This document shows positions 1-32,000 of a stretch of DNA of 32,000 nucleotides, in pieces. Both the position numbers and the translations under genes were made by a program. A model generated the notes under the pieces. The model was not told the origin of the DNA. It saw only the letters and a program-made list of their open reading frames with translations, and ran no database searches. Position 1 is the stretch's first letter, and every line of letters begins with the position of its first letter. Origin of the DNA: Candidatus Saccharimonadota bacterium (GTDB taxonomy: Bacteria; Patescibacteriota; Gracilibacteria; BD1-5; UBA2023); the NCBI GenBank assembly GCA_046350815.1, contig JAXLZO010000001.1:930001-962000 (forward strand), written 5' to 3'.

Positions 1-808
1 TACCAGGGATACGATCCGTGAGGATGTGATTACTCCACTTGATCTCTTGTTCGACTGCTTGTGCCATCATTTCTCGGATCACTGCCTCGCTATATATCTC
101 AGGAAATTCACGTCTGATCTCACGAATAATATTCGCAAAAAGAGTTACATGGGTAAGTTCATCACGACGAATATAGGCAATCATACGACCAGTTGCCGCC
201 ATACGACCATTGTCTGCGAGGGTATCAAAGAATGCAAATCCATTGTAGAAATAGAGTGATTCGAGGAGAAAATTCGCGATCATAGCACGGAAAAAATTCG
301 CATCCGTAGGATCATCTCGAAAATCCTCATAAATCGATCCAATATACTGGTTGCGCTCGAGGAGAATCTTATCATCTCGCCAGAAATTATAGATCTCTTC
401 TCGCTCAGCACTCTCGACCACACTCTCGAGAATGGTTGCATAGCTTTGTGAATGTATTGCCTCTTGGTAGGCTTGTATCGAGAGAAGGAGCTTCACCTCA
501 GGTGCTGTGATATAGTCAGCAAAATTCGGAAGATTTACCGTCTGAATCGAATCGAGAAAGATGAGGAATGATATAATCCCCTTGTATGCACGTTGTTCTT
601 CTTTGCTGAGTGTTGGAAATTGTGACTTGTCTGCATTGAGTCCAGAGACCTTCTCAGGAAGCCAAAAATTCCCCACCATCACCTGATAGAGTGATTTTGC
701 CCAAGCATATCGAGTATTATTGAGATTAAAAAGTCATGTTGTATTACCATGAATGATACTCAGATGAACGTCGTCACCTTGAGGATTAAAGAGCTTATTC
801 TTTTGCAT
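1..808 (-). CDS. nrdB: Ribonucleotide reductase class Ia small (beta) subunit. The C-terminal part runs off the window start.
   Basis: Minus-strand translation from ATG (808-806) gives MQKNKLFNPQGDDVHLSIIHGNTT[TGA=G]LFNLNNTRYAWAKSLYQVMVGNFWLPEKV... It contains the di-iron ligand motifs EAIHSQSY and RRDELTH and the FYNGFAFF block typical of NrdB. The frame stays open to base 1. Confidence 0.9.
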
Positions 809-817
809 AGAGATATA

Positions 818-1303
818 TTATTTGCGTAACAAATTAATCTGGCGAACGAGACTCTCTTCGAGGGCTGAGAGTCGCTCAAGTTGTTTGGTTTCGAGATTTT
901 GATGTTCTTGAATCTCCTGCAGATCATGAAGTGCTTTTTCAAAGTTCTCATACATCTCCATCTGCATCTTGCGAATATCCTTACCTTTGGACATGCGCCT
1001 CTCGATGAAGAGTGCTCCCGTATAGGCAAATATTGGAAGTGCGACAATAGCATAACACATCGCGAGTACCTTGCCTATATCCGTATGCGGAGCAAAATCA
1101 CCATACCCAACACTCGCTACCGTAATCACGGTAAAATAGAGGCTATCAAGTAGAGTCCATCACTCGATGAGATGAAATGCATATGCTCCGATACAAATAA
1201 GTGTTAGGAGTAACAGTACCTCTAACTGAATCAGTGATGGGAGCGAAAGTCTATTGAGCCAAGCCCTGAGGCGAGTTATATGAATGGTGTATTTGAGGGA
1301 CAT
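818..1303 (-). CDS. Small 2-TM potassium channel (KcsA-like pore) with a C-terminal coiled-coil tail, 161 aa
   Basis: ATG at 1303-1301 and TAA at 820-818. The sequence ...FHLIE[TGA=G]WTLLDSLYFTVITVASVGYGDFAPHT... carries the pore helix and the K+ selectivity filter (SVGYGD). The in-frame TGA at 1162-1160 restores the common E-G-W pre-pore motif. The tail KMQMEMYENFEKALHDLQEIQEHQNLETKQLERL looks like a coiled coil. Confidence 0.85.
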
Positions 1304-1360
1304 AGGAATATTAATACAAACTCTCAATTTGCCCCCTTACCATATTGATTATATTCGATA

Positions 1361-1380
1361 CATTGTTTATTGAAACAATG
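1361..1380 (-). other. Perfect 8-bp hairpin (CATTGTTT-ATTG-AAACAATG) directly downstream of the membrane-protein stop, with no U-tract
   Basis: Read directly from the sequence. It lies in the 77-nt gap between the stop at 1381-1383 and the K-channel start at 1303. The function is unknown; it could be an RNA processing or attenuation element. Confidence 0.35.
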
Positions 1381-2316
1381 CTACAAGCAGTATATACCAT
1401 ATATTCCAAAAATTATTCCAGAAATAATCGTAAATAGAATTAATGATAAAAGTCTTTTTCTTCTATTTTTCAAAATAATACTAATAGCAAACGCAGATAT
1501 TACTGCGATTAAAGTATTAAGTATATCCGTGATAATATACAATTGTTGTTTCCATTTATAGATTTCATTAGAGTTATATCATCAATCGATTCACGATTTA
1601 TGTTGTCCTGACGCCCATTTTATAGCATCTTGAAGTGATGTCAGAGATCCATTTATATCAAGGTGTATATTTGTTGCTATTAGATCAAATAAATAGTTAT
1701 CTACTTCAAATAATTCTCATAAAAAAAATAACAAAAAAGATACGAGCATAACATAGAGTAATATCTCAAAAAATTGGGCTAATTTTTGTTTTAAGGGTTT
1801 ATCACTCTTCCAAAACCAGAGTAGATCAAATCCAAGAATAGAAGTCCATATGAATCAACATAACCCATGCTTATTTGACTCAATCAAACTCAGCTTATAG
1901 GAATCACTCGCACGAATTTTTGGAGCTATTTCTTTCCATAAAAAATAAAGGAAATAAATAGCGAGAATAAATATGCATCAAGGCCATAATACAAAATAGA
2001 AACTTACTCAAGTATCAATAAAGTAGATACTAAATGAAGCAATGTAAGCTGCTAGTATAAATAAACCGTATTTCTTAGAAAAACTTCTTGTGCTTTCGCT
2101 AGAATAAAAGAATGCATAGTAAATACACACCTGTGCTAATGCTATTATATGTACTAAAGCAAATGGGCTTATCTCTGAACCCAAATCAGGTATTATTATA
2201 AAAACACCTGATAATGGATCTAGGATTGCAATTATTATCATTGAAATAGTAGCACCCAAGAACCAAAGAAAACTAGCTCATAAGAGTTTTCCTAGAAATA
2301 CAAAAAACTTTTTCAT
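1381..2316 (-). CDS. Hypothetical multi-pass membrane protein, 311 aa
   Basis: ATG at 2316-2314 and TAG at 1383-1381, 312 codons in one frame with 8 in-frame TGA codons. It has several long hydrophobic segments, for example GATISMIIIAILDPLSGVFIII, LFILAAYIASFSIYFI and LLYVMLVSFLLFFL. No family was recognised. Confidence 0.6.
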
Positions 2317-2331
2317 ATTTTTTAAAAATAA

Positions 2332-4890
2332 CTATCCACTACAACTCACACATCCCTCGACCTCTGCTGAGAGTGATCGTACGTAGTAGACAGTCTTCAC
2401 TCCCTGTCTCCACGCCTTAAAATAGTAACTGTAGAGTTCTGCTGGGGATACACGAGCTGGGTCGATCATCCATTCGAATGAGATAGATTGATCGATCCAC
2501 TTGTAGATCACGGAGATCATATCAATCACATCGTTCATATCCATATTTGTATATTCCTTGTAGAGCCAGAAATTCTCAGCAGAGAGCTTCGGTGCTACAC
2601 GGATCGATGTCGTAAGATTGGTCTCGACGAAGTACTTCTTATAAATGGGTAAAAGTGCTGCTGTCGTACCAACAAGCCCCGCCGTTGACGTATTCGGTGC
2701 TGGACCAAAGAGATAACCAAATCGGATACCATTCTTCTCGAGAGCATCGAACACTTCGCTCCATTCAGCACTGTAGGATGAGTTCGTCATATAGTGAGCA
2801 CGATCATGAGAGAGAATTTTGCCCTTCGAATATTCAGATCATTCATAGAGCGGATATGCTCACCTCTCCCCTGCTATCGCAATACTTGACTTAAACACTT
2901 CAAGTGCAAATACTTCAAAGAGATCATCCGCATGAAGACGTGCCTTCTCACTGTCATAGGCATATCCATTCGTCGCAAGGTATTCAGCAAAGCCAAGATA
3001 TCCAAGTGCTACTGGACGGTATCGGTGAGCTGTGCGCTCTGCCTCCTTGATCGGATAGAGATTGAGTGAGATAACATTATCGAGTGCTCGCATCACGAGT
3101 GGGATGACTCGCGCAATTGTCTCTCGATCATGTACCTTGGCAATATTGATGGACGCAAGATTACACGTGACGAGATCACCTGGTTGATACTTAATCGAGA
3201 GTTCGTCTCATTCAAGGGTCTCATCGATGAATTTTGATGGAGATGAATTCTGACAGATCTCAGTACAGAGTTGTGTTGAATAGATATTCCCTGCATGACG
3301 ATTTGCATTGTGCTTGTTGACTGTATCACGGTAGAACACATATGGCATACCAGTCTCAACTGCGGTCTTGAGGAATTTTTTGAAGAGATCTTTGGCGCTG
3401 ATTTCTTTCTTGAGAGTGATACGATCATCCTTCTCGAGCTTCTCATAGAACGCATCAAATTCTGCTCCAAAGTGATCCTCGAGAGAGATACCATAAATCA
3501 TCTTGACCTCATGCGGATCAAAGAGGGTCCATGACTCATTTGCTTCAACACGACGCATAAAAATATCCGGAACCGAAATAGCAGGAAAGACATCAAATGC
3601 CTTCGATCGGATATCTCCCGTCTCAGTCTGGAGATCGAGAAAGTCATAGATATCAAGATGCCAAACATCGAGTGTCACGGATATTGCTCCAAGGCGAGCA
3701 CCAAGCTGGTTCACCGCAATACCTGTATCATTGATCACCTTCGTCCATGGTGTAACACCACCAGACGCACCTACAACACCACGTATGTGTGAACCCTTTG
3801 ATCGGATATGTCCAAGATAGCTTCCAATACCACCACCGAACTTCGATATCTGCGCCATATTCTCGATACCATGATAGATACCACGAAGATCATCATCAAT
3901 ATTTATCTTAAAACAACTCGAGAGCTGCGCAAAGTTGGTACGAGCATTGAGGAGTGTCGGAGTTGGGAGTGATATTTCACCTGTAGCACATGCGCGATAG
4001 AGTGCCTTGGCAAAGCTAAGACGATCCTCTGGCTTCTCAGCGAGAGCAAGAAAGAGTGCGACTGAGAGATACATCTCTTGAGGGAGTTCTTTCTTCTTGA
4101 TAAGATAGCGTTTTGTTAGGCTATGAATCGTGGTATATCGATATCCGAGATCGATGGATTTATCAAGTACGCTTGCCGCGTCCATCAGATCTTCATCTGT
4201 ATATTCAGCAAAACGTGTGTTGTATTTGCCAGACTTAGTCAGCGATCGAACAAGATCTCGATATCCTTCTGGAGAGTACTTACGTCCGAGTTCCTTGTAG
4301 AGATCAAAGAGCTTGATACGAGCAGCAATATGCTCCCAATCAATATTCTCGATGGTAACAAGATCAATACACGTCTTAATAAGAAGTCTTGAGATATCCT
4401 TGGTGGAAATATCAGCGACAATATTCTTCTTAAACGCTTGCTTGAGATCCTCAAAACTACAAGTTTTCTCATATCACTGAGATGCTCGATCAAAGAGCTT
4501 GTGGATTTTCTCAATTTCGAAGAGTTCTTTGCTTCCGTCTTTCTTGGTTACAAAAAGATTTGATTTCTCGAATTTCTTTTGGAGTTTTTCACGATATTCT
4601 TCCCGTTCTTCAGCCCGCTTAGACCGATAAACGATGTATTCTTTTGCGACTTCATAACATCCTTGCTGCATGAGAGCTTGTTCTACCATATCCTGAATCT
4701 TCTCAATTCCTATTTTGGAATCATCATGTCCACAGATCAAATAAATCTCACGAGTGACAATATCAGTAACATTTTCAACATCACATTGGTGACCATTAAT
4801 AGCTGTTACAGCGAGCTCTATAGCTCGAGTGATTCGGCTTGGATCGAACTCTTCGACGGATCCGTTTCGTTTGATTACCTGAATTTGCAT
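2332..4890 (-). CDS. nrdA: Ribonucleotide reductase class Ia large (alpha) subunit with an N-terminal ATP-cone, 852 aa
   Basis: Four ORF-track fragments (4474-4908, 3208-4185, 2860-3096, 2332-2790) share one frame and are joined only by TGA. The N-terminus MQIQVIKRNGSVEEFDPSRITRAIELAV is an ATP-cone. Internal motifs include CNLASINI and GGGIGSYLGHIRSKGS. The C-terminal tail is CVSCSG (CxxC). The stop is TAG. Confidence 0.93.
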
Positions 4891-4902
4891 ATTTGCATAA
4901 AA

Positions 4903-4918
4903 ACACAAGATATAGTGG
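4903..4918 (-). promoter_or_regulatory. NrdR box, proximal (ACACAAGATATAGTGG)
   Basis: Matches the published 16-bp NrdR palindrome consensus acaCwAtATaTwGtgt at 14 of 16 positions. It lies 13 bp upstream of the nrdA ATG. Confidence 0.6.
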
Positions 4919-4934
4919 TGGAGATTTTATAAAA

Positions 4935-4950
4935 ACACTATATATAGTAA
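4935..4950 (-). promoter_or_regulatory. NrdR box, distal (ACACTATATATAGTAA)
   Basis: Matches the NrdR consensus at 14 of 16 positions. It is offset 32 bp (about 3 helical turns) from the proximal box, which is the classical tandem arrangement. On the minus strand it overlaps a plausible -35/-10 pair (TTTACT ... TAAAAT). Confidence 0.6.
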
Positions 4951-5003
4951 ATATTGACTTTTAAAAAAAATGAAGATTTTGCTTCTAGAAGCCAAAACAA
5001 GGC

Positions 5004-5034
5004 AAAAAAATACGATTGACAGTTGGCAATCGTA
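5004..5034 (-). terminator. Rho-independent terminator after the 5047-6180 gene
   Basis: The minus-strand RNA reads TACGATTG-CCAACTGT-CAATCGTA followed by TTTTTTT. It starts 13 nt after the TAA at 5047-5049. Confidence 0.6.
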
Positions 5035-5046
5035 TGGGTTATGAAC

Positions 5047-6180: not shown

Positions 6181-6195
6181 AGGTTGCTCTAAAAA

Positions 6196-7674: not shown

Positions 7675-7709
7675 ACAAATGAAAAAATATAGGCATCACT
7701 GCCTATGGA

Positions 7710-8756
7710 TTAGTAGTTAAGAGTAGCAATAATCGTATCAATAATTTTTTTTGATTGAGCGGTCTGAGTTACATCTTCAAGAACAAAAGTAGAGTCTCAT
7801 TTACCAATATAATAACGTGAATCAATTTTAACAGCTGTCTGTCATTGAAGTTCGCTCAAAAGTTTTCATCGATAAAAATCAACAACCACATCACTATCGG
7901 CACGGCTAGTAGGTTCGGAAGATGATTTTAATGTTATTTCATGGGTTACTCATTTTGGAGCTATAAATCAGTGAAAAAAAGTTGCCACAGGGAAACTATA
8001 AGAATAATTGTATTCCTTCTTAGTATACGTTGCTATTTTTAATTTTGGATCAAGAAGATAAGAATTCATATCGAGTACTACAACATTTGCTGCGGCAATA
8101 TTCGTATTATTTATGGGCTCTATTTTTGCTGAAGTGGATCAAGTCATTCATTGAGGGGGAATGATTATTCAAGTAGAAGCAGAAATGGAAGATATATCAT
8201 TATCATCACTCAAGCCTGCGGAATTTCCTGTTGAGGAGAGCATGCTATTATCGAGCGATGATGTAGATCATGTAGACTCGGTGGATCCAGTATCTCATTG
8301 TGAGCCAGTAAGCACGGACAAGGTGATATCATTGGTTGGCGTAAGACATTCTCCATCGTGTGCAATAATAACCTTTGAATTTTCTGCTAGACAAGCATTC
8401 TTGTATGTTAATCCATTCACACCACACACTAATCTTTCTCACGCATCACACAATACATTATCATTAGACATTTTCTCCCCTCTCGCATCTTTGTCATTTC
8501 AAGAATAGTTACTTACTTGTGAGAGGAAAATACTCAATCCAACAATCAGTGCAAGTGCAGATAGAAAAGCAATAATGAGAGGAATTTTTGAATTTTTTTC
8601 CTCAGGCGTCAGCTCGTCCTCAAGAGCTTGATATGTTTCAACAGCGCTAAGATGCTTCTTGGAGAGTGGTTTCACCAAAGAAGTTTCTTCTCAAATCTCT
8701 AAATTTTTGTTTGCTTTTCCAGTATTTGCCTTGGTCTTTTTGGGGTTTGTTTCCAT
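7710..8756 (-). CDS. Single-pass membrane protein with an extracytoplasmic Kazal-like domain, a Ser/Thr/Gly-rich linker and an unknown C-terminal domain, 348 aa
   Basis: ATG at 8756-8754 and TAA at 7712-7710, 349 codons. The TM segment is IPLIIAFLSALALIVGLSIFL. The Kazal core is C-DA[G]ERLV-C-GVNGLTYKNA-C-LAENSKVIIAHDGE-C, with canonical C2-x7-C3 and C3-x10-C4 spacings and the VCG..G.TY.N.C signature. The gene is invisible in the standard-code track because it contains about 10 TGA codons. Confidence 0.7.
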
Positions 8757-9010
8757 AAGGAAGGATAAAAATACGCTTCTATCTTACCTTTTTTCGAGAA
8801 AAAGCAATTTCAAAGCCTCTTGAAACTTCAAATGAAATCATTAAGCTTCTGATTGTTTTTGATATTTTCTATGAAACGATCCTCACTTTTCTCTCGGAGA
8901 AAAATATTAACATGGGTCTTTGAATCACGAGTACTGAGATCGTTTATCCAAAAATCTCCTTTAGCAGCAAAATTAAGAATCCAAAAAATCTTCCCTCTTA
9001 TCCTTATTGT

Positions 9011-10468
9011 ATGATCCAAATATTTAATACCTTATCTCGAGAAAAAGAATCGTTCAAACCACTTAAACAAGAAGTAGTCAAAATCTACTCATGTGGGCCA
9101 ACACCATATAATTTTGCCCATATTGGGAATATGCGAGCCTATCTCTTTGAAGATTTGGTCATTCGCACGATTGAATATGCTGGATACAAAACACAAACCG
9201 TGATGAATATCACTGATATTGATGACAAGACGATCCGTGATAGCCAGGCACATAATATCAGTCGTGATGAACTCACAGAGAAATATACGAAGGCATTTCT
9301 GAATGATCTCGATCTTCTTAATATCCATCAAGCACACGATATTGTACCAATATCTACCCTTGTCGATGAAATGGTGATGATGATACAAGGTCTCCTTGAT
9401 AAGGATTATGCTTATCTTGCGGAAGATGGAAGTATCTACTATTCTGTAGATAAATTTCCAAACTACGGAAATCTTGCTCATATTGATAGATCAAATCTTA
9501 TCTCCGGAGTCCGTATCAAAAATGATGAATACGGAAAAGATCAAGCGTCCGACTTTGCTCTCTGGAAATGATACGATATAAGTGATGGACCAAATTTTTG
9601 GGAGCCAACCTTCCGTATTGGTGCGAACGAAGTTAAGCTCAAGTGAAGACCGGGATGGCATATCGAATGTAGTGCATGTAACCTAAAATATCTAGGTGAA
9701 CAAATTGATATTCACATGGGTGCAGTGGACAATATCTTTCCACATCATCAAAACGAAATTGCTCAAACAGAGTCCTACACTGGAAAAACATTCTCGAAGT
9801 ATTGGCTTCACGCAGGTCACCTCCTTGTAGATAACAAAAAGATGGCAAAATCTGCTGGGAATTTCTATACCCTTCAAGATATTATCAATGAGTGAGGAAA
9901 ACTTGGTCTCGATGCAAAAATGGTAGCACGATCATTTCGCCTTATGACGCTTCAATCACTCTATCGGGATAATTTTAATTTTGGATTTGATCGTCTTGTT
10001 TCATGTGGCGCAACGATTCGTTCGTTTGATGATTTCTTCCGTCGAATCAAGCGTACTAACTTCCCTGCTTGAAAAGTTCGCCGTAATTTCTCAAGCAATC
10101 TTCAAGCAATTATTCAAGACTATAGCGAATGTCTCTTTGATGATTTTCGAAGTAATGACGCTCTCGTAACTGTACATGAAGCTATCGGGTATTTTCAGAG
10201 AGAGATTGATATGGAATCACTCAACCTCTCTGAGAAGAACGCAATTCTATCACTCTTTGAAACACTTGATAGTGTGCTTGGGATATTTGATTTTTCTCTT
10301 CTTACAGAGGAGGAAATTCCAGAAAATATTCATCTCCTAGCAGCATCTCGTAGTGAAGCAAAAAAAGAAAAGCGCTACGGCGATGCGGATGCAGTACGAA
10401 AACAAATTGAAGAGCTTGGCTATAATATCATAGATACTGCAACCGGTTATAGTCTGGAAAAAAATTAA
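9011..10468 (+). CDS. cysS: Cysteinyl-tRNA synthetase, 485 aa
   Basis: The N-terminus [17 protein letters not shown] is followed by the HIGN class I motif ([10 protein letters not shown]), K[TGA=G]RPGWHIECS (TGA at 9644-9646) and the KMSKS variant KMAKSAG. The fragments 9011-9571 and 10211-10468 are in one frame and joined only through TGA. The stop is TAA. Confidence 0.95.
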
Positions 10469-10478
10469 CCTCCTTTGT

Positions 10479-11276: not shown

Positions 11277-11305
11277 ATAATAAGATTTCAATAACCATTA
11301 AAACT

Positions 11306-11749
11306 ATGGCAAACATCAATCCACACATCAATTTCAACGGTAATGCCGAAGAAGCATTCAACTTTTACAAATCAGTATTTGGCGGGGAGTTTGCAAAAAT
11401 AATACGTTTCAAGGATTTAGTAAGTGCCGAATTTCCAGTGGCAGAACATGAGGCAAATAAAATCATGCACATCGCACTACCGATTGGTAAGAGTATTTTA
11501 ATGGCGAATGACGTACCTGAAATACTCTGACGAACAAACGAAAATGAGAACAGAAGTAAAATTGTAGTGAGCGCAGAAAGCAAAGATGAAGCTGACAAAT
11601 TATTCAATGGACTGGCAGCAGGTGGGCAAATTGAAATGCCTATTTCTACGAGTCCTTGGGGTTCATACTTTGGTATGTTCAGAGACAAATATGGAATTGA
11701 ATGGATGGTAGATTTTGACTCAAACTATAAGGGGCAAATAGATTGATAA
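11306..11749 (+). CDS. VOC-superfamily protein (PhnB/YjdN-like glyoxalase fold), 147 aa
   Basis: The sequence MANINPHINFNGNAEEAFNFYKSVFGGEF...MHIALPIGKSILMANDVPEIL[G]RTNENE...PWGSYFGMFRDKYGIEWMV is typical of PhnB-like proteins. It ends ...QID-TGA-TAA. Confidence 0.8.
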
Positions 11750-12507: not shown

Positions 12508-15500
12508 ATGAAAAAAATTCTTTCGTCCGTATTGCTCATTACTATGAGTCTGGGTAATTTCTCTTGAGTATATGCTCTATGAGCATTGGATGTTGCCACT
12601 CCCCTTATTGGTGAAATGGCTAAATCTATGGAGGATTTCATCAAATATCCATCATGATCAGAATTTGAGAAAATCAAATCAATCGTCGATACCTATCTCG
12701 TAAGAGAACCAAATCAATATGGAGATACATGGTGGAAAACCAAGCCAAACTACACACCGATCATTGAGAAAGAGCTTAAATTTCTCATCCTCTCAACCTA
12801 TCAATGACACGAAGATTTTTATAAAACCCTCTTCCCTTACTATTCAGGTTGGAACAATGAATCATCAAAAGAGAAACAAATAAAAGATCTTTTGAACGCC
12901 ATACCTCGCTCAAAACACATGAATATATCCTCCATTTTTAATAATGGATCCTCCATTGGTGAGAGCTTTATCGATGCGAGTTTTGGGGTAGATTTTTCTG
13001 AGCAAAATGATAGTTTTGATACAATAGTCGCAATTAAAAATAAAATTAATACCATCTCAGAGAATAAATGCATAAACTATAGTAGCTATTCTGATAGTTG
13101 TTCATGAGATCTATGAAGTTTTCTTCCATCAATAGAAGAATTACTTCAAGAATCTATTTACAAAAATAATCAGGAAATTTTATTATGAGACATCAAAGAT
13201 GAATTTATTTATAAATTAAGTAATGATGAGCAAAAAAGAGTAATTAATAGAGATTATGTAAACTGAGTATCTTCACAATTAAAGAATAAGAATAAACAAG
13301 AGCATGAAATATATGAAATTCTATTTTGAAATAAAAATAGCGATTTTGATCTAGATAAAATTATTTCATGAGATAAAAAAGAAGCACTTCGACTACTGGG
13401 AAGAATTAGTAATTATAATGATTTATGATACGATGATAAATCAATGCTCAAAAATTATATAAAATATCTTCTATCGTCTCAATTATACCCAGAAGGCACG
13501 ACCTACACCCTCGAATATAAGACAAAATCCTACACCTATGAGTCTGCACTTAAAGAGGTAGAATCAAAAGAGAATAAAGCTGAAAAGAAAGACTACAAGA
13601 AACTTATGAATGGTGCAAAAGCTGAAAATATTCCGGAGATTTTTCAGAAAATCCCGAATGATTCTGTATCACTCTATATTAAAAATCCTAAAAATCTCCT
13701 CTCCATTCTCGATCAACCATCGAGTGGGCTTCAGCTTAGCGGAATTGATAGCTCCAAGAAAATCAAGGAATATATGTCAAAATGGCTTGAGATTGATGAT
13801 TTTTCTCAAATTCAAAAGAATCTCAAACATGAATCAGCTATTATTCTCACCAATCTTGATCCAACCACCCCAGAGGTAACATTTATCATATCTGAAAAAG
13901 ATCGTGATGCTCTCTCGTGAGATGGAAAGAGTGCCATCGTCAAACAACAAGACGGATATATCTATGTATCGAGCTCTCAAGCCATACTTGATAGTATTAC
14001 CAACCTCAAGAGCTCGGATTCTCTCGCTGAATCGGATGATTTTCACTATGTTTGGTGGAAGAAATCAGCAAAGATCCAAGATGCTTTTGTATTCGTGGGA
14101 GATAGATTCTTTGAGAAGATAACCACACTCGATACTTTTATCAAACATTATCGCAAAATCCAAGATCATAAGCAGCTCACCTCGCTTCAAGAGCTCACTT
14201 GGGCATACAAAAAAGCATACAACCGTGATGCCAAGAGTTTCGATGAAATTATTGAACTTTTCTCGAAGACATGAGAGAGCTCTCTCACATCGGAGTCATT
14301 AAAAAATTACTCCATCCAAAATGGTCTCGTCATACACAAGAACATAGGAAGTCTTGCGAATACAAAAACAATAAGCGATGCAAATTACGATTTGAATCAA
14401 ATTACTCGAAAAGAACTTGATGATTATAAATATTCCATACTCAAATATCGTGATATCTGGCGAGCGAGCCTTGATCCAATGGGAATTATCATCAATCAAT
14501 ACAAAGATGGAATCAATATCGACTTCTTCATGACGCCAATACCAGATTTTCCTGATGAGGAAACCAATCTTATCTTTAAGAATTTTCAATGAGTTCTCAA
14601 AGATCGACTTGATTTCATCCAAGATACCAATGTTCGATCAGGTATGGCGAGTATAGTATTTGGATTCGATACACAAAAAATCAAAGAAAAACTCGATAAA
14701 CCTGAAGGAGAGATAGAAAAAATGGCGTCAATGGGATATAAAGAAGGACAAAAAGAGCTCTTTGGAAAAGAAATCGATATTCTCTCGATGCTTGGCGGTG
14801 AATTTGCCCTTGGAATCGGTTCGGTCGATGATGATATTCTTGATTTTGATGCAGAAAAAGCAGATACCTTCTTTGCTATCCAAGTGCAGAGTCAAGAAAA
14901 GGGAGAAGAACTCATCAAGATTACACAAGAGCAAATACAGAAATTTGCCGAGATGGAAGGCGGTAGTGAAGGTAGAATGGTATCACAAATAATCAAGATG
15001 TTCTCAAAACCATCCATAGAGGAATATCGTGGGTCAAAAATCTCCTACGTTGACGACATAGGGCTTCCATTCATAGGTGTGACAGGGATTTCATACGGAT
15101 ATGCAAAAGGATTCGTATATTTTGCCTGAAATCGTAATACTATCAAAAAAGCGATTGATACTGCTCTCGATGGTGATACACAAAAGGCAACCATTGTTGC
15201 CAATACTCAAACATCTACAGGAGTACTCTTTGGAGCTATCGTAAACGGAGCAAAGGTGAATGAGAATATCAATGCCATCGTGAAGAAAAATAGTGGACTT
15301 CTCTATATGATGGGGTGATTGGCAGGGCAAACTTCATGAGCACGGGATGCGATCTGGGCATTGAGCGCATGATATTATCAATCATATGAGAGAAATATGC
15401 TCCTCGGACGAAAAGATATTCCATTCCAAGAAAAAATTGGTATTGCACAACTCACTGGAAAAGATGGGCATATTTTCCTCAAGATATCTCCTCAAGATGC

Positions 15501-16197
15501 ACATTTCTCATCAGGAACTATTGCAACCCAATGGAATGATTTCGCACCCAAGATAGATGCTTCTTATACAACTCAAGATGGTATTAATCTCTTGGAGTTC
15601 CTCAAAAAAGATGATACCTTTGTGAGTGAACTTGCCGTGTTTACACTTGCTTCCGTATTTGATAATACAGAGCAAACAAATATTTTCTTTCACAATACAC
15701 TTTTTACGCTCAATCTTGGTAAGGACGAAATTGGATTTGAGCTGAGAATATTTGACGGTGAACAACAACAAAAAAATCTCTTCTCAAAATTACTTGGCGG
15801 AGATACGAGTAGTGTGATGATTATCGTATGAATGGTCGTATTAGCACTCCTTGGTGGAGGTGGATGATTTGTTATGATGCGCCGTAGAAGAAAAATGAAC
15901 GGAAGCATTACCATATCTTCATCTACTCTAGCATCCCCAACAACAGAAACGACCCAATTCTCTCCTCAACCAATAACCGAAGTAATGACAGAAAGCATTC
16001 CAACGTATATTCAGCCGACCACCACCACAGTTATAGCGAACAATATTTCAACTCCATCTACTCATCAGGATATACTCATTCCAGTCGATCTACTATCAAC
16101 AACACCGATAGTGCTCGAAAATACTCCGATCATGCCTACGAAACCACAAAGTGTCATCACTCCACAACAACCATCAGATAATATGATTCGTCCATAG
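12508..16197 (+). CDS. Very large secreted, C-terminally membrane-anchored surface protein of unknown family, 1229 aa
   Basis: All + strand ORF-track fragments from 12892 to 16197 share one frame and are separated only by TGA (roughly twenty). ATG 12508 gives a signal peptide, MKKILSSVLLITMSLGNFS[G]VYA. Near the C-terminus the hydrophobic VMIIV[G]MVVLALLGGGG[G]FVMM is followed by RRRRK and a Thr/Pro-rich tail. The stop is TAG. Confidence 0.8.
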
Positions 16198-18120: not shown

Positions 18121-18274
18121 AAAAAACAAGTATGGTACAGTGCGATCGATAGGTATATGTTTCTATCTTACATATAATGTATATTCAATACATATATTAT
18201 ATATGATAGCAATACTTTTTAATCTATAAAAAATTATGTGATACAATAAAAATCCAGCAAATGTATGCGAGGAT

Positions 18275-19213
18275 ATGAACTCACGAGACCCTTCTCTTTG
18301 AATTCGGGTACTCATCGCAAACTTAGCCGCCAAACAACCAGAACTCTGAGAGCAACTTTTTTTCGTTGACAAAGCTCTTCGTATTCATGAATTGTCTGAA
18401 TGAACGACAGAGGATAAAAAAAGAGCACAAGATGAACTATCTAAACTATCAGTAAAGGATCAAGAAAGAGCACAAAGAATCATAGGGGATTACAAATTTA
18501 AAGCATGATGCAATTTTTATAGTGCAGAGAATTTTGTTATAACAGACAAAGACAAATCATGGATACAAAAGATGAATGGACTGCAATTTAATGCGGTGAA
18601 AAAATATATTGAAGTTCTAGCAAGGCAAGTACTGTATTTTTGGATTCGAGAAAGGTTGATAGAAGAATGAAATAAAAATCCAGAATTTAAACTGTTGCTC
18701 GCAAGCGACTACGATGACATTATATGTTGAACTGATTATATACTTAACATTATTGGAGACCCAGTCATTATTAACGGCATTAAAAAGGAAGTCACCTATA
18801 CCTCAGCCATTGATCTTGCTATTACAAAGAATCCAATTTATGTTCGTGAAAAAATAACTAAGAAACGTGAAAATCCACAGGAATACATAGCAACAAAACA
18901 ATGAACAAAAAGTCAAATGAATTCAAATACACAATTTGATAAAAATATTGTTGTTATACCACCGGATATAATGTGAAAATTTATTGCAGCAAACATGCAT
19001 TATCTCATAAATGGTACATACCCAGCTCAATATCAGACATCATGAACACTTACACCAAAAACATTTGATTTATTCAAACAAATTCATGAGGAGACTAAAC
19101 GGGAAGATAAATTGAATCTAAATATCGCTGATACTGTCGGTCATATCAGAGAAAAATTCGGAATAGTTACAAATTTACCACTTACTTCACTTGCAAATGC
19201 CAATCGAAAATAA
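18275..19213 (+). CDS. Hypothetical cytoplasmic protein, 312 aa (an alternative start at ATG 18236 is possible)
   Basis: A single frame is open from 18230 to TAA 19211-19213 when 8 in-frame TGA codons are read as sense. The gene is completely absent from the standard-code track. No TM segment, signal peptide or recognisable motif was found. Confidence 0.55.
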
Positions 19214-19778: not shown

Positions 19779-19834
19779 AGACCAAAAGTATAGGAAAAAT
19801 ATATGAAATGTAAAAGATAACAATATTTTGATTA

Positions 19835-21835: not shown

Positions 21836-22600
21836 ATGTCGCTTCAACTTCGCAACTATAATGTACATCTATCAGCAGAATCCAATCCGGCTACTATACT
21901 GAATGATATACAATGTGAGTTCACTCCAGGTACAACGACCTACATTCTTGGAAAAAATGGCTCTGGCAAAAGCTCGCTCCTCCTCTCTCTTGCATGAGCA
22001 CCATACTATACTACTCATGGAACAGCATTCCTCAGTGAGGTCGATATTTCCAACTTTGATGCCAGCAAACGCTCAGCACTTGGAATATTCATAGCGCTCC
22101 AATCAATTCCATCGATTCCTGGTGTGACGTATGGAGAATTTCTTCGAACGATCTACACACACAAAATCCAACGAGAAAATCCGGAATTCAAGATATCTCC
22201 ATTTGTTTTTGGTCGAATGCTCCAAAAGCACCTTGATGAGCTTCATTTGTCCAAAGATTTTCTCAAACGAGAGGTAAATGTCGGGTTTAGCGGCGGGGAA
22301 AAACGTCGTCTCGAGCTTCTACAATTACGACTCCTAGAACCAAACATCATTCTTCTTGATGAGATTGAATCAGGACTCGATATAGGAGTATTTGAGTTAC
22401 TCATATCAGAATTAATGAGACTTCGATCTGAATGAAAAACACTAATTATCGTCACTCATAATTTTGAGCTTATGAGACGTGTAGGTGGAGATCAAATACT
22501 CATTATCGAGAGCGGAAATCTCATTAAAACAGAGCAATTTTCTGATATATCAAGCACAGAACTAACCCAATATTTTGATTATCATCCAGAGCATGCATAG
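21836..22600 (+). CDS. sufC: Fe-S cluster assembly ATPase SufC, 254 aa
   Basis: The sequence is MSLQLRNYNVHL...ILGKNGSGKSSLLLSLA[TGA=G]APYY. The LAG motif follows Walker A as in E. coli SufC. Other motifs are FSGGEKRRLELLQL and ILLDEIESGLD. The stop is TAG. Confidence 0.93.
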
Positions 22601-23387: not shown

Positions 23388-24770
23388 ATGCAAGACATCT
23401 CACGAGAATTCTTTGATCAAAGTGACACTATATCATATACTCACAATTTGCGTCCATGACTTCATGAAGATGTGATCCGATTTATCAGTAGTCAAAATCA
23501 TGAGCCACAATGGATGCTCGAACATAGACTCAAATCACTCGAGATATTCAGGTCGCTTGGTATGCCAAATTGGGGGCCAGATCTCAGTGATCTCGATCTA
23601 GAGAGTATCTATTATTTTGCTCAGCCAGAAGGTGCAAATGATGCAAAGAGCTGGGATGACGTCCCAGATAAGATCAAGAACACCTTTGAACGACTCGGGA
23701 TTCCAGAGGCAGAACGCACAATGCTTGCTTGAGTGGGTGCACAGTATGATTCTCAGGTTGTATACCACTCACTTAAAGAAGAAATCAAAGAAAAAGGAGT
23801 CATCTTCGAAGATATGTCAATCGCACTTCGTGATCATGAAGATATCGTACGAAAACATTTTATGAGAGCTGTTCCGAGCTCCGATCATAAATTTGCAGCA
23901 CTCCACGGCGCGGTATGGAGTGGTGGAACATTTCTCTATATCCCAAAAAATGTTGAGATATCAGAGCCACTCCAAGCATATTTTCGTATGAATGTGAAGT
24001 CTGGTGGGCAATTCGAGCATACGCTTATAGTCCTCGAAGAAGGAGCTCATGCTCACTATATTGAAGGTTGCTCTGCGCCAAAGTATGGTACCAATTCGCT
24101 CCATGCATGATGCGTGGAGATCTATGTTGGTGAATGAGCATCAATGCGATATTCGAGCGTTGAGAATTGGTCGATCGATACATACAACCTCAATACAAAA
24201 CGTGCCATCGTTCAGAAGAATGCATCCATGGAATGGGTCGGCGGCAATCTCGGAAGTGGTACAACGATGCTCTACCCTGCGAGTGTTCTCCTCGGCGATT
24301 ATTCCAGCGCACGCCATATAGGAGTTGCTTTTGCGAATACTGATATGGAGAGCGATACAGGAGCAAAAGTAACCCATATTGGCAAATATACCCGATCACA
24401 AGTAACATCCAAATCCCTCTCAAAATGAGGAGGAAGATCCACCTATCGTGGCCTCATCAATATCAAGCCAAGTGCCATCGGATCTGTATCCAATGTTGAC
24501 TGTGATGGACTTATTCTCGATGCATCATCCAAGAGTGACACCTATCCAGAGATACGAATTGCTAATAATTCAAGTCAGGTCACACATGAGGCAAAAACAG
24601 GATCTCTCTCAGAAGAAGCACTCTTTTACCTCTCAAGTCGATGATTGAGCGAAGACCTCGCAAAGAATATGATTGTTGGTGGCTTCCTCTCCCCTATCAC
24701 TGCCGAACTTCCACTCGAATACGCCATGGAAATGAACGCGCTCATACAGATGGAAATGGAGTGAATTTAG
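23388..24770 (+). CDS. sufB: Fe-S cluster assembly scaffold SufB, 460 aa
   Basis: The sequence is [11 protein letters not shown]...[17 protein letters not shown]...[21 protein letters not shown]...[10 protein letters not shown]...WVGGNLGS.. Four track fragments are in one frame and joined only by TGA. The protein ends ..EMEME[G]I-TAG. Confidence 0.95.
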
Positions 24771-24797: not shown

Positions 24798-25928
24798 ATG
24801 CAGAAAATATTTGATAAAAATACGAGGAAACTTTTACTCTCACGATGAGAGGATTTTATTGTGTCGTTCATTACAAAATGATGTGCTGGAAATAAAGTAA
24901 GTATAGCTATCGCAACGGATGAATATTTTGACAAGAATCTTGACTGCATTATGGAAGGCCAAGAAGGCGATATTCCACTCTGTCTTTGGATAGCACCAGA
25001 AGACACACATCTCCTCGAGAATGCTCGAATGACGATCGTCCCAAAATGAACTGGGGAAACAGTGATTTATACAAGCAATAAAGTATCAAAACGATGCGGA
25101 TGTGGATCGAGTTTTGCCGTAGAGTGAAGAGAAAATACCGCGCACAAACACGAAGAATCCAATCAAGAAAAGATAAAAAAACTCAGTGGCAAAATAACAT
25201 CTCTCAAGGGAAATTTTACAAAGAAATGAACCATCCCAGAAAAAGTTATCTATCTCTCACAAGAGTTATCAACGGATAATAACAGGTTTTTCACTCTCAA
25301 TAAAGAACAAAAACTCATCATTATCGACGATCTCCCTGAGAGTGAAATGGGCATATCCCTATCGGGGATGGGGTCGCTCGAATATTATCTTCTCCTCATT
25401 GAGAGTACCTCACGGAAGCGACTCATCAAATCATTGAACAACCATCAACATATCACAACCCATTTCTTTGTGAATGAATCACAGCAAGATACCCAAACCC
25501 AAAAGAAGAACTATGAGCTCGTGATCGAGGTACATGGATCTCATACGCAGTTAGCATCAAAGAGTCTCACGCTCTCATCAAGCCCAATTCTCACTCGTGT
25601 ACTATCAGGTATTCGCATTCTCTCGGGTCACTCTCATGAGGCAACACTCACACAACGATCTATTCTCCTCTCGGATAATGCATCCATTGCTCAAATTCCA
25701 CTTCTCGATGTTCATACGAACGATACCAAGGCAAGTCACTCAGCAAACATTGTATCCATTACTCCAGAAGAAACTTTCTATATGATGAGTCGTGGGATAT
25801 CGGATGAAGATGCAAAGAATATGAAAATAGTATCGCTCATACGAGAAGTTGTTGATCAACAATATTTGACTCAAGAAGATATAGAACAGTTACTTTTTAG
25901 GCACAATCCCAATCTTGAATCATTCTAA
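24798..25928 (+). CDS. SufA/IscA (HesB)-like domain fused in frame to a SufD-like C-terminal domain, 376 aa
   Basis: Residues 1-109 carry HesB motifs, TK[G]CAGNKVSIAI and ..SKRCGCGSSFAVE. TGA follows at 25125-25127, then a basic linker. The remainder is a SufD-type beta-helix and C-terminus: LLSDNASIAQIPLLDVHTNDTKASHSANIVSITPEETFYMMSRGISDEDAKNM. I checked the frame codon by codon from 25080 to 25347 and found no TAA or TAG. Confidence 0.75.
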
Positions 25929-26100: not shown

Positions 26101-26130
26101 TAATCGATTTAGAGTTCTATGTTTAAAAAA

Positions 26131-27150
26131 ATGTGCCTTATCTTACTAGCTATCACAGTTTTTGTAGTCATTCTTATTCCAGATAGGAATACTATTCCAC
26201 GAGATGCACAATTTATTGGTGGTTGATATTACAAAAATGGGAATGATGTATATTTTGAAACGGGTTGAGGTTTTTTTCTTCAACTTCATGATCCGTATGA
26301 AGCATACAGAATTGATGAGGCTGATGGCAAAACATTTAGCTATCTTGGTAATAGTTTTGCAAAGGATAAAAACCATGTATATTTTACATGAAGAATTATT
26401 AAATGAGCTAATCCTGATAAGTTTAAATTTGCATCTGGATCATTTTCACAGTATGTTATAGATGATAAAAATGTTTGGTATGGAGATGAAGCTATACCAC
26501 TCGTAGATATTGAAACATTTAGCTATCTTGGTAATAGTTTTGCAAAGGATAAAAACCATGTATATTTTACATGAAGAATTATTAAATGAGCTAATCCTGA
26601 TAAGTTTAAATTTGCATCTGGATCATTTTCACAGTATGTTATAGATGATAAAAATGTTTGGTATGGAGATGAATTATTACAAGATCGAGACCCATGAACT
26701 TTTGGATTAATATATGATATTTTTCCGCATGAATATACAAAAGACAAAGAGAATGTATGGTATAATAGAGAAATAATAGTATGAGCGGATCCTAAAACAT
26801 TTGAACTACTGAGACCAACAGACGGGCTTACCACTTATTCTAAAGACAAAAATTACGTATACCTCAACTGAAAAAAAATCGATATAGATACTAAAACGGT
26901 TAAGGTTGTAGAATGACAAACTGGTACGATTAGATTTCTCAGAGACCAATATGGTGTCTATTGCTTTGAATCAAAAAGAGAATGACATGATAAATTACAA
27001 TTAAATTGAATTAATCTTAACACATTTGAACTTTTGAATAGTGAATACTTAAGAGATGATAAGCATGTATATTTTGCTAATTGTACTTATCAATGATTTT
27101 ACTTTAAAATAGTAAAATGAGCGGATCCTAAAACGTTTAAAATTAAGTAA
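26131..27150 (+). CDS. DKNYY-family repeat protein with an N-terminal membrane anchor or signal, 339 aa
   Basis: The N-terminus is MCLILLAITVFVVILIP. The repeat motifs recur: KDKNHVYFT[G]RIIK[G]ANPDKF, DDKNVWYG, KDKENVWYNREIIV[G]ADPKTF, KDKNYVYLN and DDKHVYFA...VK[G]ADPKTF. The frame is joined through about 15 TGA codons. The stop is TAA. Confidence 0.8.
26330..26673 (+). repeat. Intragenic tandem duplication: two 100% identical 161-bp copies (26330-26490 and 26513-26673) with a 183-bp period
   Basis: Direct comparison of the two stretches. The offset is 183 bp, or 61 codons, so the duplication is in frame and duplicates one DKNYY repeat unit. Confidence 0.9.
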
Positions 27151-27295: not shown

Positions 27296-28486
27296 ATGAA
27301 ATCCGACTTTCCTATATTCTCGAATCGCCCACTCGTCTACCTTGATTCGGCTGCAACCACCCAAAAACCACAATACGTTATTGATAAAGTAGCTGAGTAT
27401 TTAACTACAAGCAATGCAAATATTCATCGTGGTGGATATGCTATCTCTGATGAGAGTGCAGAACTTTATCTCAATTCGAAGAAATCCTATCAGGAGCTTG
27501 TGCACGCAGGTAAAGAATATTCAACCGTATATAGCGCCAATGCAACTCATGCTATCAATGAAATAGCGCTGATGATCGAGCGAAGTGTAAAAGTACAATC
27601 ATGAGATCAGATCATCATACAACGAGACAACCATCATGCGAATATTGTACCATGGATGATACTTGCGCAAAAAACAGGAGCAACCATTGTATGGCTCGAT
27701 ACTCATAATATATCTTCGGGAAATATCATAAAACAACTTCAACAGATCACGACAGAGCACACAAAAATTATTGCACTAACTCTCGTGACCAATGTGACGG
27801 GAGCAATCTATCCATGGAAAAATCTTTGAAGTACTCTCGGCAATAAGATCTATACTGTCGTTGATGCAAGTCAGGCACTCCCCCATCATCTACTCGATAT
27901 AGAGAGTCTCAATGCGAGCTTTGCCGTCGCAACAGCACACAAATACTATGCTCTCACAGGACTTGGGATGTACACAGCAAAAACCGATCTTCTGAGGGAA
28001 CTCACTCCTGGCATTGGATGAGGTGGAGCAATCAATTTTGTCAGAGAAGATGGGTTTGAATTTGCCGGTATGCCTTATCGACACGAGCCTGGCACACCAA
28101 ATGTTGTCGCTGCAGTATCGCTCCTCGCAGCAATTGAATATTTACGAGATAAAAAAAAGCTGATCCAGTCAAAGGAAGATGAACTCACATCATATTTTCT
28201 CTCTTGATTTGAGGATATTCAAGAGAGATTCGAACTCTTGCAATCTCCTACAGGAAATTGAGTAGGAATATTCTCTCTTGTACCAAAAATCGGACACATC
28301 GCAGACTATAGCGACTACCTCTGAGAGCGTCACATAGCCGTGCGAGCTGGACAGCATTGTTGTGAGCCATATCATACTATCTGTAATATATCATGAACAC
28401 TTCGTGTAAGCTTTGGGATATATACAACCCAAGAAGATATTGATACATTCTTTAGAGTTCTCAAATCATCATACGACTATGTATAA
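27296..28486 (+). CDS. sufS: Cysteine desulfurase SufS (class V aminotransferase), 396 aa
   Basis: The sequence is FPIFSNRPLVYLDSAATTQKP...VDASQALPH...ATAHKYYALTGLG (PLP lysine)...TPGIG[TGA=G]GGAI...RAGQHCCEP (catalytic Cys). The frame is joined only by TGA. The stop is TAA. Confidence 0.93.
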
Positions 28487-28880
28487 TGCTTATTTTCTCG
28501 AGTGTGCAAAAAGTCCGACACACAAGTGATCTCTGAATGATCCAAGTATCCGCTACCGAGAAGAAAATCGTCATTGTGGTGAAGCTATTACTATAGATCT
28601 CTCCATTCGAGATAATCGTGTAGACATTATTCGTTTTAACGGAGATCTCTCGATTGTGACAACCGGAAGTGCTGAGATACTCTGCGAGAATATTACTGAT
28701 ATGACCATAGATGAGATATTTACCCTTACTAGTGATGATATGCTCGCAATGACCGAGATAGAAGTAACCAATCGACGTAAACTTGCACTTATACTCCCAC
28801 TTCTCTCTACAAGAAATGCACTCCATACATATCTTTGTGATGGGATACGAGATGATTTTGGAACATTATTAGATCTATAG
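28479..28880 (+). CDS. SufU/IscU-like protein, degenerate (only one of the three canonical Cys ligands is retained), 133 aa
   Basis: The ATG overlaps the sufS stop (ATGTATAA). The sequence is MYNAYFLECAKSPTHK[G]SLNDPSIRYREENRHCGEAITIDLSIRDNRVDIIRFNGDLSIVTTGSAE...RRKLALILPLLSTRNAL, and it aligns by eye with B. subtilis SufU. The stop is TAG. Confidence 0.7.
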
Positions 28881-29555: not shown

Positions 29556-29563
29556 TGTAGTGT

Positions 29564-30859
29564 ATGAATACTAATATCAATTTTTGAGATCTACCTAATA
29601 TCAGTGAAAAACTCAATGCTTCAGAAATCGCCGAGATGAACAAAGTATTCAATGATCCTCAAGTTCAGCAACGTCTCGAAGAAATTGAAATACAGAGAAT
29701 AACACTTCAGAGATGGAAATATTGAATATATGGCATTATTATACTATCTAGCATAGCTGGATCCATAGATACTCATTTTTCCCAACTATTTGGAATAATT
29801 ACACTTCTGGGCTTTGCAGCTTATGGCTTTCTACAGATAAAATTCTCAAAATTAGTAAATATACCACTAAAAGTAGATGTATTGAGCAAACTTTGCTCAG
29901 TAATATATTCCAAGTTACTATACTCTTATGATGAAAAATATTCGTTTAATGAAATAAATATTCTTCGTGATAAATGAATATTGCAGTCCTATGATAGAAT
30001 TGATTCTGTTGAAGATAGCATGGAATTCGATGTAGATCAAAACGGGAAAAAAATGTTTGTGAATGCTTTTGAAATCAAGACATCCAAAATGCTTGAAAAA
30101 AGAAGCTACAGGCATGGTCATGCAAGTAGACATAGAAAAAGAGTAGTGACGAATCATGCATATCTAATAAAAGCCGTGTTTCCAAATGCCCGTATTCCCA
30201 TGAAAAGTGATTTGGTAATAACCAATGATCAAACTCTAAATAGAGCTATCATGATTCCTTTTGCATCAGGTATGACTTGATTTATGATTTGAGCACTTTC
30301 TTTCCATTATCTCTCATGACTTAATCTCCCAGGAAATACCGAAATTCTATTTGCATTAACTATTGGGTGTAGCCTCTGATTATTGATGTACAAAAAAATG
30401 AAAATGATAAATGAAATGAACAAGGTTGAAATGGAGAATATTGAATTTGAAAAACTCTTTGATGTAAAATGTGAAGACCAAGTTACGAGCCGTATGATCC
30501 TCACTCCAGCATTTATGGATCGTATCGTTTCATTTGTACATAAAACTGGGAATCAATACGAATTTCTCTTTCAAGGGAATACACTCTATATCAAGAGAAA
30601 AATTCCAGGGAAATACCTCGAAGTTGGTACCGAAAAAAACATCCTCACCAATCTATCATGATTTGTTCAATTTTATTGTGATATGAGAGAAGTAATGCTC
30701 TTCATCAATGATATGAACCTCATGTATCTCTCTAAAACTGATAGTTCTCTTGTAAATATAAGTCAAGAGTATCATCGATCGGAAGCTCTGAGATTTGAGA
30801 AAGTAAGTCCACTCTGATTTTTTGCGAAATTCCAACCATTACTTCGTTTTATCAGATAA
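29564..30859 (+). CDS. Membrane protein resembling the DUF3137 family (a frequent LemA partner), 431 aa
   Basis: The gene starts 9 nt after lemA. It has two TM pairs. The block FEKLFDVKCEDQVTSRMILTPAFMDRIVSF resembles the conserved DUF3137 motif, recalled from memory. The frame is joined by about 10 TGA codons. The stop is TAA. Confidence 0.7.
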
Positions 30860-30907
30860 ATAAAGAAAATATATATTCATATAAAGGTCTAAACGACTAT
30901 TCTACAT

Positions 30908-30940
30908 AAGCAAAAAGAACCTCACGGTTCTTTTTGCTTT
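30908..30940. terminator. Stem-loop terminator between convergent genes
   Basis: A 14-bp stem (AAGCAAAAAGAACC / GGTTCTTTTTGCTT) with a TCAC loop. It is A/T-run rich on both arms, so it could work in both directions. Confidence 0.6.
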
Positions 30941-31135
30941 CATTGAGCCACAATGAATACATTTATCATATCAACGTAAGGAATTAGACTTACCAATCCA
31001 GCGAGTTACGATTGTTGAGGCGAGTTAGAGATCTACTTCTACTGTAATACTTGAACGTACCATCCATTCCCAAGATTTCCAGCTACACGGGAATAACATT
31101 TATATTATTCTGTCATTCTGAAATTGATTTAAGAC

Positions 31136-32000
31136 CTACTCTTTCTCCCCTACATGATATTCCTTGTAGAGATCATAGATATCTGATTTAATCTTTGGAT
31201 CTTCACATTCAATATAATCCTTCTGAATATCGGTCTCATGAGATTGCAAATAATTCCGAATATTTTCTTGAAACTTTGGATCATCGGGCATAAACTTATT
31301 GGCTTCGATAATTCTCCTTAAATAGGAATTTTGAATCACATGAACCTTATCCCATTTTCCAGAAAATACATCATACATATGCGTTACCGTCTCTTCGGGA
31401 GCTTGAATCGTTCACATTTCTACCACTCCATGTGTCACCCCATCTCCTCACTCCAAAAGAATTGCCAAATCTCAAAATCAAAAGAATGAAGCAATAAAAT
31501 TTGGATAAGTAGATCGAATGGTTTTAATTTTATTTCTGTCAAGTGACTGTGCATCAGTATACATGGCTTTTTGTTCCACATAGTAGACAATATTCTTGGT
31601 AACGAGAATATAATCCATATCAAGATTAATCATCTGAATATTATAGAGACGATTGAAGTAGATCTGAACTAAGAGACATCAAATCTCAAGAAATATGTAA
31701 TAACTCCGATCATGCAAAAAAATGGATCCAACTGTAAACATTTGGTAAACAATGTAGATAATATCAAGAAGAACAATGATGATAAAGAAAAAATAAAGTG
31801 TTTGAAGCTGATTAAAGAAGGCAGTGAACAACTCATCACCTTCTTCAAGTTCCTGATATATCTGATTGAGATTCCGAATCTCAAAAGACTGATGATGGTT
31901 TTTATGAAAGCTACGAAGATATCGAAACGATGCAAATACAAGATAAAAAGCAAAGAAAGAGAATATCACCCCTAGAATAATTCCAAAAATATTTCAGTGA
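31136..32000 (-). CDS. Membrane protein with a bacterial PH (bPH_2/YdbT-like) domain. The N-terminus is possibly outside the window.
   Basis: Track ORFs 31679-31969 and 31136-31378 are in one frame and joined through TGA codons. The frame stays open to base 32000. TM helices are followed by DYILVTKNIVYYVEQKAMYTDAQSLDRNKIKTIRSTYPNFIASFF[G]F[G]DLAILLE[G]GDGV...IQAPEE, which resembles the bPH_2 pattern. The stop is TAG. Confidence 0.6.

Follow-up and report, generated by a model that had tools for sequence, protein, structure and literature searches.

What does the codon UGA mean in a bacterium whose conserved genes, read with the standard code, are interrupted by it again and again? This question is raised by the stretch of DNA analyzed here, a chromosomal fragment of 32,000 bp with a GC content of 37.1% (hereafter, the window), which carries among others nrdA, cysS and a set of suf genes. 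Our answer, which we hold with high confidence, is that the window is part of the chromosome of an uncultured, UGA-recoded bacterium of the Gracilibacteria type using translation table 25, with UGA as a glycine codon, UAA and UAG as sole stop codons and UGG still read as tryptophan. The lineage is probably Candidatus Gracilibacteria in the NCBI taxonomy and, in GTDB, class JAEDAM01, within which the organism may belong to either of the orders BD1-5 and Absconditabacterales. Table 25 is the Candidate Division SR1 and Gracilibacteria code, for which UGA=Gly is credited to Campbell 2013 and Rinke 2013 (as cited in PMC8629427), and hundreds of genomes using it are already present in GTDB and GlobDB. 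The window thus adds one more case of a familiar code, in a lineage where its use is documented and for which the finding is ordinary.

Open reading frames and stop codons

Open reading frames (ORFs) were called under alternative codes, as an earlier note on this DNA had proposed. With table 11, 28 ORFs in the window measure 100 aa or more, with a sum of 4098 aa and a maximum of 325 aa, and with TGA as a sense codon the longest ORF reaches 1281 aa. As a chance control, TAG or TAA was freed instead, resulting in longest ORFs of 325 aa and 332 aa, respectively. Because neither gives a gain, the increase in ORF length is specific to TGA. The TGA-sense reading comprises 27 genes and assigns 92.6% of the window to coding sequence (Table 1).

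In the 27 gene frames, TGA occurs in frame 160 times and TAA and TAG not once, compared with 383 TAA and 226 TAG in the two off-frames. Of the 26 complete genes, 16 stop at TAA and the other 10 at TAG, in agreement with the earlier note, although this stop usage is partly circular because gene frames are delimited by TAA and TAG by construction. In standard-code outgroups, TGA terminates 17 of 57 Suf genes, so that finding it at none of 26 gene ends here has a probability of ~1e-4. In all conserved genes, moreover, orthologue alignments run past every TGA to the C-terminus, and no gene needs TGA as a stop. Pfam profiles are likewise matched over their full length across TGA codons, as for the ribonucleotide reductase (RNR) barrel of NrdA (1-523 of 523), the aminotransferase class V domain of SufS (1-371 of 371) and the SUFBD core (1-232 of 232). 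These full-length domains, together with the third-position bias of strain differences described below, independently validate the frames.

Within the 27 genes (9896 codons in total) we counted 160 TGA, 444 GGN, 92 TGG and 117 CGA codons. The glycine content is 4.5% from GGN alone and 6.1% when TGA is included, TGA then making up ~26% of glycine codons. Tryptophan makes up 0.93% of residues with TGG as its only codon, a figure that code 4 would raise to 2.5%.

The gene models put forward in the earlier note stood with minor corrections. Its division of nrdA by TGA holds, but the four TGA codons make five pieces, not four; the 1229-aa gene, for which it gave at least six pieces, has 19-21 TGA codons. 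Both genes that it had listed as missed by standard annotation are real. The one at 7710-8756, invisible under table 11, is called as a 348-aa gene in a strain contig (L072), and the one placed at 18275-19213 more likely starts at 18236, as its homologues measure 325-327 aa.

The residue at TGA codons

To avoid biasing alignments to any residue, TGA was translated as X in all searches. Orthologues with solved structures, all from standard-code organisms, place TGA on the invariant glycine of Cys[12 protein letters not shown] in the cysteinyl-tRNA synthetase CysRS (4/4), on the glycine of RG(I/L)SE in SufB (3/3), where two further TGA codons also fall on G columns, and on the glycines of ERG and (Y/F)xGS in NrdA (3/3 each). 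The TGA column of the SufS motif GGGE (28019-28021) is G in 4/4 solved structures and in 15/15 outgroups. Tryptophan was found at none of the TGA columns of the solved-structure orthologues. The TGA of the SufC motif LAG (21995-21997) corresponds to G in 14/14 standard-code outgroups as well as in SufC of E. coli and T. thermophilus, and the sufB codons at 23457, 23730 and 24642 correspond to G in 16/17, 19/19 and 19/19 standard-code outgroups, respectively.

A scan of GTDB species representatives with SufB yielded 71 loci, for which sufB, sufC, sufD, sufS and sufU were compared codon by codon. Outgroup loci without in-frame TGA (16-19) came from Dojkabacteria, Woesearchaeota, Chloroflexota, Saccharibacteria and others. 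In 258 comparisons of window TGA codons with outgroup residues, glycine is the most frequent residue (128), with aspartate at 31, alanine at 22, cysteine at one and tryptophan at none. For NrdA, 120 homologues were used, mostly from standard-code Moranbacteria at ~61% identity; the TGA columns at aa 139, 677 and 684 are G in 107/117, 119/120 and 119/120 of them. At strongly conserved columns of the Suf proteins and NrdA combined, TGA meets G nine times, D three times and W never (n=12).

The same picture emerges from codon exchange among relatives that are themselves recoded. In 52 loci with in-frame TGA of their own, window TGA codons are paired with GGN 223 times, with TGA 87 times and with TGG 0 times (n=310); reciprocally, TGA codons of these relatives are paired with GGN 377 times, with TGA 87 times and with TGG 0 times in the window (n=464).

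At closer range, exact-protein look-up found two strain contigs (L072 and L073; Logan SRR12901020 and SRR12900999) in assemblies of other samples. They are 98% identical to the window over 2333-11279, measure 8-11 kb and reach only 239 bp beyond the window. Strain differences are synonymous in 244 cases and non-synonymous in 32, and they fall on third codon positions in 99/105 cases in nrdA, 27/27 in the GT2 gene and 7/7 in cysS. Three changes within genes involve TGA, two of them exchanges with GGA and one with GGT, and none with TGG: the nrdA codon at 2860-2862 is GGA in the 98%-identical strain, the nrdB codon at 734-736 is GGA in both strain contigs, and the strain contigs have TGA in place of the GGT codon of the K+ channel gene that ends at 985. 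Upstream of the GT2 start codon, at 7698, a fourth change turns TGA into TAA. In a SufS sequence that is 87% identical (L075), the window's seven TGA sites are GGA in three cases, TGA in three and TCA in one.

The central proposal of the earlier note, TGA as glycine (code 25) and not tryptophan, is therefore upheld by the outgroup counts and by the interchange with GGN. Its individual examples are in frame in the contexts described, namely KLK[TGA]RPGWHIECS (9644-9646), SLA[TGA]AP (21995-21997), GIG[TGA]GG (28019-28021), IE[TGA]WT (1160-1162, minus strand) and LLGGGG[TGA], where TGA forms the last residue of a glycine run in the 1229-aa protein. TGA columns align neither mainly with tryptophan nor with orthologue C-termini, two of the outcomes that the note had named as fatal to its claim. 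As judged by sequence comparison, read-through of UGA and its occurrence on glycine positions are thus demonstrated.

Decoding of UGA and alternative readings

The hallmarks of code 25 are a tRNA-Gly(UCA) and loss of release factor 2 (RF2). Two of the closest relatives, with 68-70% SufB identity (L003 and L004), carry a tRNA(UCA) gene immediately beside tRNA-Gly(GCC). This tRNA has the acceptor pairs G1:C72, C2:G71 and G3:C70 (GCG.../...CGC) and the discriminator U73, exactly the features by which Shulgina and Eddy (PMC8629427) define tRNA-Gly(UCA). Its length is 76-79 nt, its acceptor stem has 7 bp and its variable arm is short, and it matches RF00005, not tRNA-Sec. In the proposed mechanism, a dedicated tRNA-Gly with anticodon UCA and the identity set G1:C72, C2:G71, G3:C70, U73 would decode UGA; RF2 would be lost, so that nothing terminates at UGA, and RF1 would handle both UAA and UAG. 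Proteomics of a BD1-5 bacterium gave 40 glycine peptides versus one tryptophan peptide at UGA (Hanke et al., PMC4032931).

Several observations weigh against the table 25 reading. ARAGORN finds no tRNA gene in the 32-kb window, none of the 27 genes encodes a release factor, and the tRNA(UCA) was seen in relatives that are only ~70% identical in SufB; as the window holds neither type of gene, the mechanism proposed for this genome is drawn from its relatives and from published work. In addition, some TGA codons fall on columns that vary or are conserved for other residues. Aspartate occupies the column of NrdA aa 561 in 101 homologues, that of SufS aa 340 (4/4 solved orthologues) and that of SufB aa 349. 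SufS aa 319 is an Arg/Lys column (4/4 solved orthologues), and in ribosomal protein L9 one TGA falls on a His column (3/3 solved orthologues) and another on a G/S/A column. Aspartate accounts for 3/12 strongly conserved columns at TGA but for only 1/71 at GGN (Fisher P=0.009). Recoded relatives, however, carry G, TGA, N or A at the non-glycine TGA columns, and not D, which points to lineage-specific substitution as a simpler explanation of the aspartate excess than different decoding.

These columns also underlie the two alternatives that survive best. In the first, UGA may not be read purely as glycine, and ambiguous or context-dependent decoding by tRNA(UCA) would lie behind the excess of Asp, His, Arg and Lys columns; we consider this improbable. 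Slightly less probable again is a dual meaning of UGA, mostly glycine and, depending on context, termination or another amino acid. It draws on the same columns, on a gene ending in ...TGA TAA (11744-11749) and on single peptides with other amino acids at UGA reported by Hanke et al. (PMC4032931), yet the orthologue C-termini beyond the last TGA and the residues of recoded relatives at the non-glycine columns both speak against it.

Table 4, the code of Mycoplasmatales and several insect endosymbionts with UGA as tryptophan, explains read-through of TGA equally well as table 25, and public translations have W at the TGA sites (P0001 and P0121-P0123), which reflects a choice of annotation and is not evidence. 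Tryptophan is nevertheless absent from all 258 outgroup comparisons and all 12 conserved columns, TGG is never paired with TGA in relatives or exchanged for it in strains, and a tryptophan content of 2.5% would be abnormal. Moreover, the relatives' tRNA(UCA), with U73 and G1:C72, lacks the G73 of tRNA-Trp, leaving this reading very unlikely. More unlikely still is a standard code combined with pseudogenes, frameshifts, or sequencing or assembly errors. Under table 11 every conserved gene does appear broken, but the interruptions are solely TGA (160), never TAA or TAG, and the reading frame is never lost; the same TGA codons are present in assemblies made independently from other samples (L072, L073 and L075), and the ratio of synonymous to non-synonymous strain differences reveals strong purifying selection. 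Selenocysteine insertion, suggested by the label tRNA-SeC that ARAGORN gives to the relatives' tRNA(UCA) on account of its anticodon, has a negligible probability, as 160 UGA codons spread over all 27 genes are not the pattern of selenoproteins, cysteine occurs in only 1/258 outgroup comparisons, and the ordinary tRNA(UCA) differs from tRNA-Sec with its long variable arm and 8+5 acceptor/T stems. The tests run refute the code 4, pseudogene or error, and selenocysteine readings.

Lineage, gene content and annotation

The closest SufB sequences (65-74% identity) come from metagenome-assembled genomes (MAGs) that are named Candidatus Gracilibacteria or, in automated submissions, 'uncultured Ca. 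Peribacteria'; in-frame TGA occurs in most of them, in keeping with the Gracilibacteria/SR1-type origin suggested by the earlier note. Among the GTDB species representatives scanned with SufB, none exceeds 72-74% identity, and the organism is not one of them. A metagenome scan with the right-end gene of the window retrieved relatives that are ~70% identical (L074-L078), whose contigs contain no tRNA genes.

The remaining codons were surveyed at strongly conserved outgroup columns, 508 in Suf proteins and 543 in NrdA. Sense codons match their standard meaning, except for CAC, CTG, TTA and GTA, which have only 2 to 9 conserved columns each, and no further reassignment was found across all 64 codons at these columns. 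TGG aligns with W at 15/15 conserved columns, as anticipated in the earlier note, and CGA with R at 15/18; CGG aligns with R at all three NrdA sites (118/118 at two; R 62 versus Q 47 at the third), and AGG with arginine. Absconditabacteria are reported to read CGA and CGG as tryptophan, and some Gracilibacteria to read CGG as tryptophan (PMC8629427). Because CGA is abundant here and both CGA and CGG are read as arginine, the window looks, from its codons, Gracilibacteria/BD1-5-like and not Absconditabacteria-like.

Compared with known table 25 lineages, the window differs in nothing in kind. UGA is a sense codon on glycine columns, UAA and UAG are the sole stops, UGG is tryptophan and GC content is low to moderate; the nearest relatives are recoded Gracilibacteria MAGs, and close relatives have a tRNA(UCA) with the glycine identity set. 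Absconditabacteria (SR1; Shulgina and Eddy 2021, PMC8629427) share UGA=Gly and an ancestry in the candidate phyla radiation (CPR), but have fewer than 37 CGA per 10,000 codons, compared with 117 in 9896 here, where CGA, CGG and AGG are all arginine codons. Table 4 organisms (Mycoplasmatales, Hodgkinia, Zinderia, Nasuia, Stammera and some Eggerthellaceae) likewise use UGA as a sense codon and keep UAA and UAG, with RF2 loss expected, but they belong to a different phylum and read UGA as tryptophan where the window has glycine.

UGA use in the window (26% of glycine codons) is intermediate between that of high-GC relatives and that of the HOT-871 clade, and the clade of the window covers almost the whole range of such use. 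Relatives with 55-60% GC (L001-L004 and L019) use TGA for 0-3% of glycine codons in Suf genes and, where gene ends are present, end these genes only in TAA or TAG; two of them are the tRNA(UCA) carriers L003 and L004. In a clade that includes HOT-871 (L038, L041, L042, L044, L045, L054 and L071), mostly with 25-40% GC, TGA accounts for 50-71% of glycine codons. A milder variant of ambiguous decoding would be a near-unassigned state of UGA in the 55-60% GC relatives, with tRNA(UCA) kept, TGA avoided as a stop and hardly used for glycine; if true, it would be informative on the origin or decay of code 25. Across the window, too, the TGA share of glycine codons tracks the GC content of the gene, from 7-18% in GC-richer conserved genes (nrdA, nrdB, sufB and sufC) to 40-59% in AT-rich lineage-specific genes (1381-2316, 7710-8756, 18236-19213 and 26119-27150).

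The practical consequences lie in annotation. Table 11 recovers only ~40% of the coding capacity of the contig, as fragments. Proteins of this organism in public collections derived from Logan and ENA assemblies were translated with table 4 and have tryptophan in place of glycine at ~1.6% of residues, frequently on glycines that are invariant in catalytic sites, for example those of Cys[12 protein letters not shown] and of the SufS motif GGGE. The public protein clusters P0001, P0121, P0122 and P0123, for example, have W at TGA columns, as in NrdA ...LYEWSEY, where orthologues have an invariant G. In full-length homologues of the gene at 18236-19213 (325-327 aa; 96, 92 and 79% identity), W occupies each of the 10 columns where the window has TGA, a pattern that fits table 4 translation of a TGA codon. 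For this lineage, homology searches, structure prediction and composition statistics will all suffer from such errors. The value of the result is practical and the biology established: UGA=Gly has been known in Gracilibacteria and Absconditabacteria since 2013, proteomics has confirmed it, and NCBI table 25, Codetta and gTranslate all take it into account.

Table 1. Genes of the window under the TGA-sense reading, in order along the forward strand
Feature	Position	Strand	TGA codons and remarks
nrdB, RNR small subunit, partial at window edge	2..808	-	1 TGA
Two-transmembrane K+ channel	818..1303	-	TGA 1160-1162 in IE[TGA]W, aligned to IEGW of K2P channels
Membrane protein	1381-2316		TGA share of glycine codons in the 40-59% group
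nrdA, class I RNR large subunit, 852 aa	2332..4890	-	4 TGA (5 pieces)
Hypothetical gene and GT2 glycosyltransferase			Between nrdA and the Kazal-like gene
Lineage-specific 348-aa gene, weak Kazal-like match	7710..8756	-	13 TGA, 54% of glycine codons
cysS (CysRS, 485 aa)	9011..10468	+	TGA 9644-9646 on invariant G of [10 protein letters not shown]
Membrane protein			Between cysS and the VOC/glyoxalase-family gene
VOC/glyoxalase-family gene	11306-11749		Ends ...GAT TGA TAA
rplI, ribosomal protein L9	11842..12321	-	3 TGA
1229-aa secreted or membrane-anchored protein, no Pfam match	12508..16197	+	19-21 TGA
ABC ATPase with FtsX-like permease			Between the 1229-aa and 325-aa genes
Lineage-specific 325-aa gene	18236..19213	+	10 TGA, 59% of glycine codons
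SLT-domain protein, then hypothetical gene			Between the 325-aa gene and sufC
sufC	21836..22600	+	TGA at 21995-21997
SDR			Between sufC and sufB
sufB	23388..24770	+	7 TGA
sufD-like gene	24798..25928	+	5 TGA
DKNYY-family gene	26119..27150	+	14 TGA
sufS, cysteine desulfurase	27296..28486	+	7 TGA
sufU/NifU-like gene	28479..28880	+	1 TGA (G in 9/10 outgroups)
lemA, DUF3137 gene, partial hypothetical gene			Last three genes, after sufU

A few further features were observed. The nearest NrdA homologues are ~60-64% identical, apart from a few recoded relatives at 73-77%, and most of those at ~60-64% with a named source belong to Moranbacteria/Moraniibacteriota, which are standard-code CPR bacteria; this resemblance could reflect shared CPR ancestry or gene transfer. 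In the VOC/glyoxalase-family gene, TGA directly precedes the real stop codon TAA (11744-11749), and the 3' end of sufB is similar (...GAG TGA ATA TAG). An Rfam scan of the window gave no match. This includes the largest non-coding gap, 621 bp at 19214-19834, which contains only small ORFs, such as one of 53 aa at 19233-19394 (+). Within the DKNYY-family gene, 183 bp (61 codons) are duplicated in tandem, in frame and exactly (100%; 1.9 copies, 26330-26673); either the duplication happened very recently or the assembly created it.

Strain divergence is patchy along the region shared with the strain contigs. There are 97 synonymous differences in the 852 codons of nrdA and 7 in the 486 codons of cysS, and positions 1-1304 are only 91% identical. 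In the 98%-identical strain contigs, an unrelated segment of ~750 bp with a 101-aa ORF (8948-9694 of L072, opposite 1304-2332 of the window) replaces the membrane-protein gene at 1381-2316. The patchiness suggests recombination between strains.

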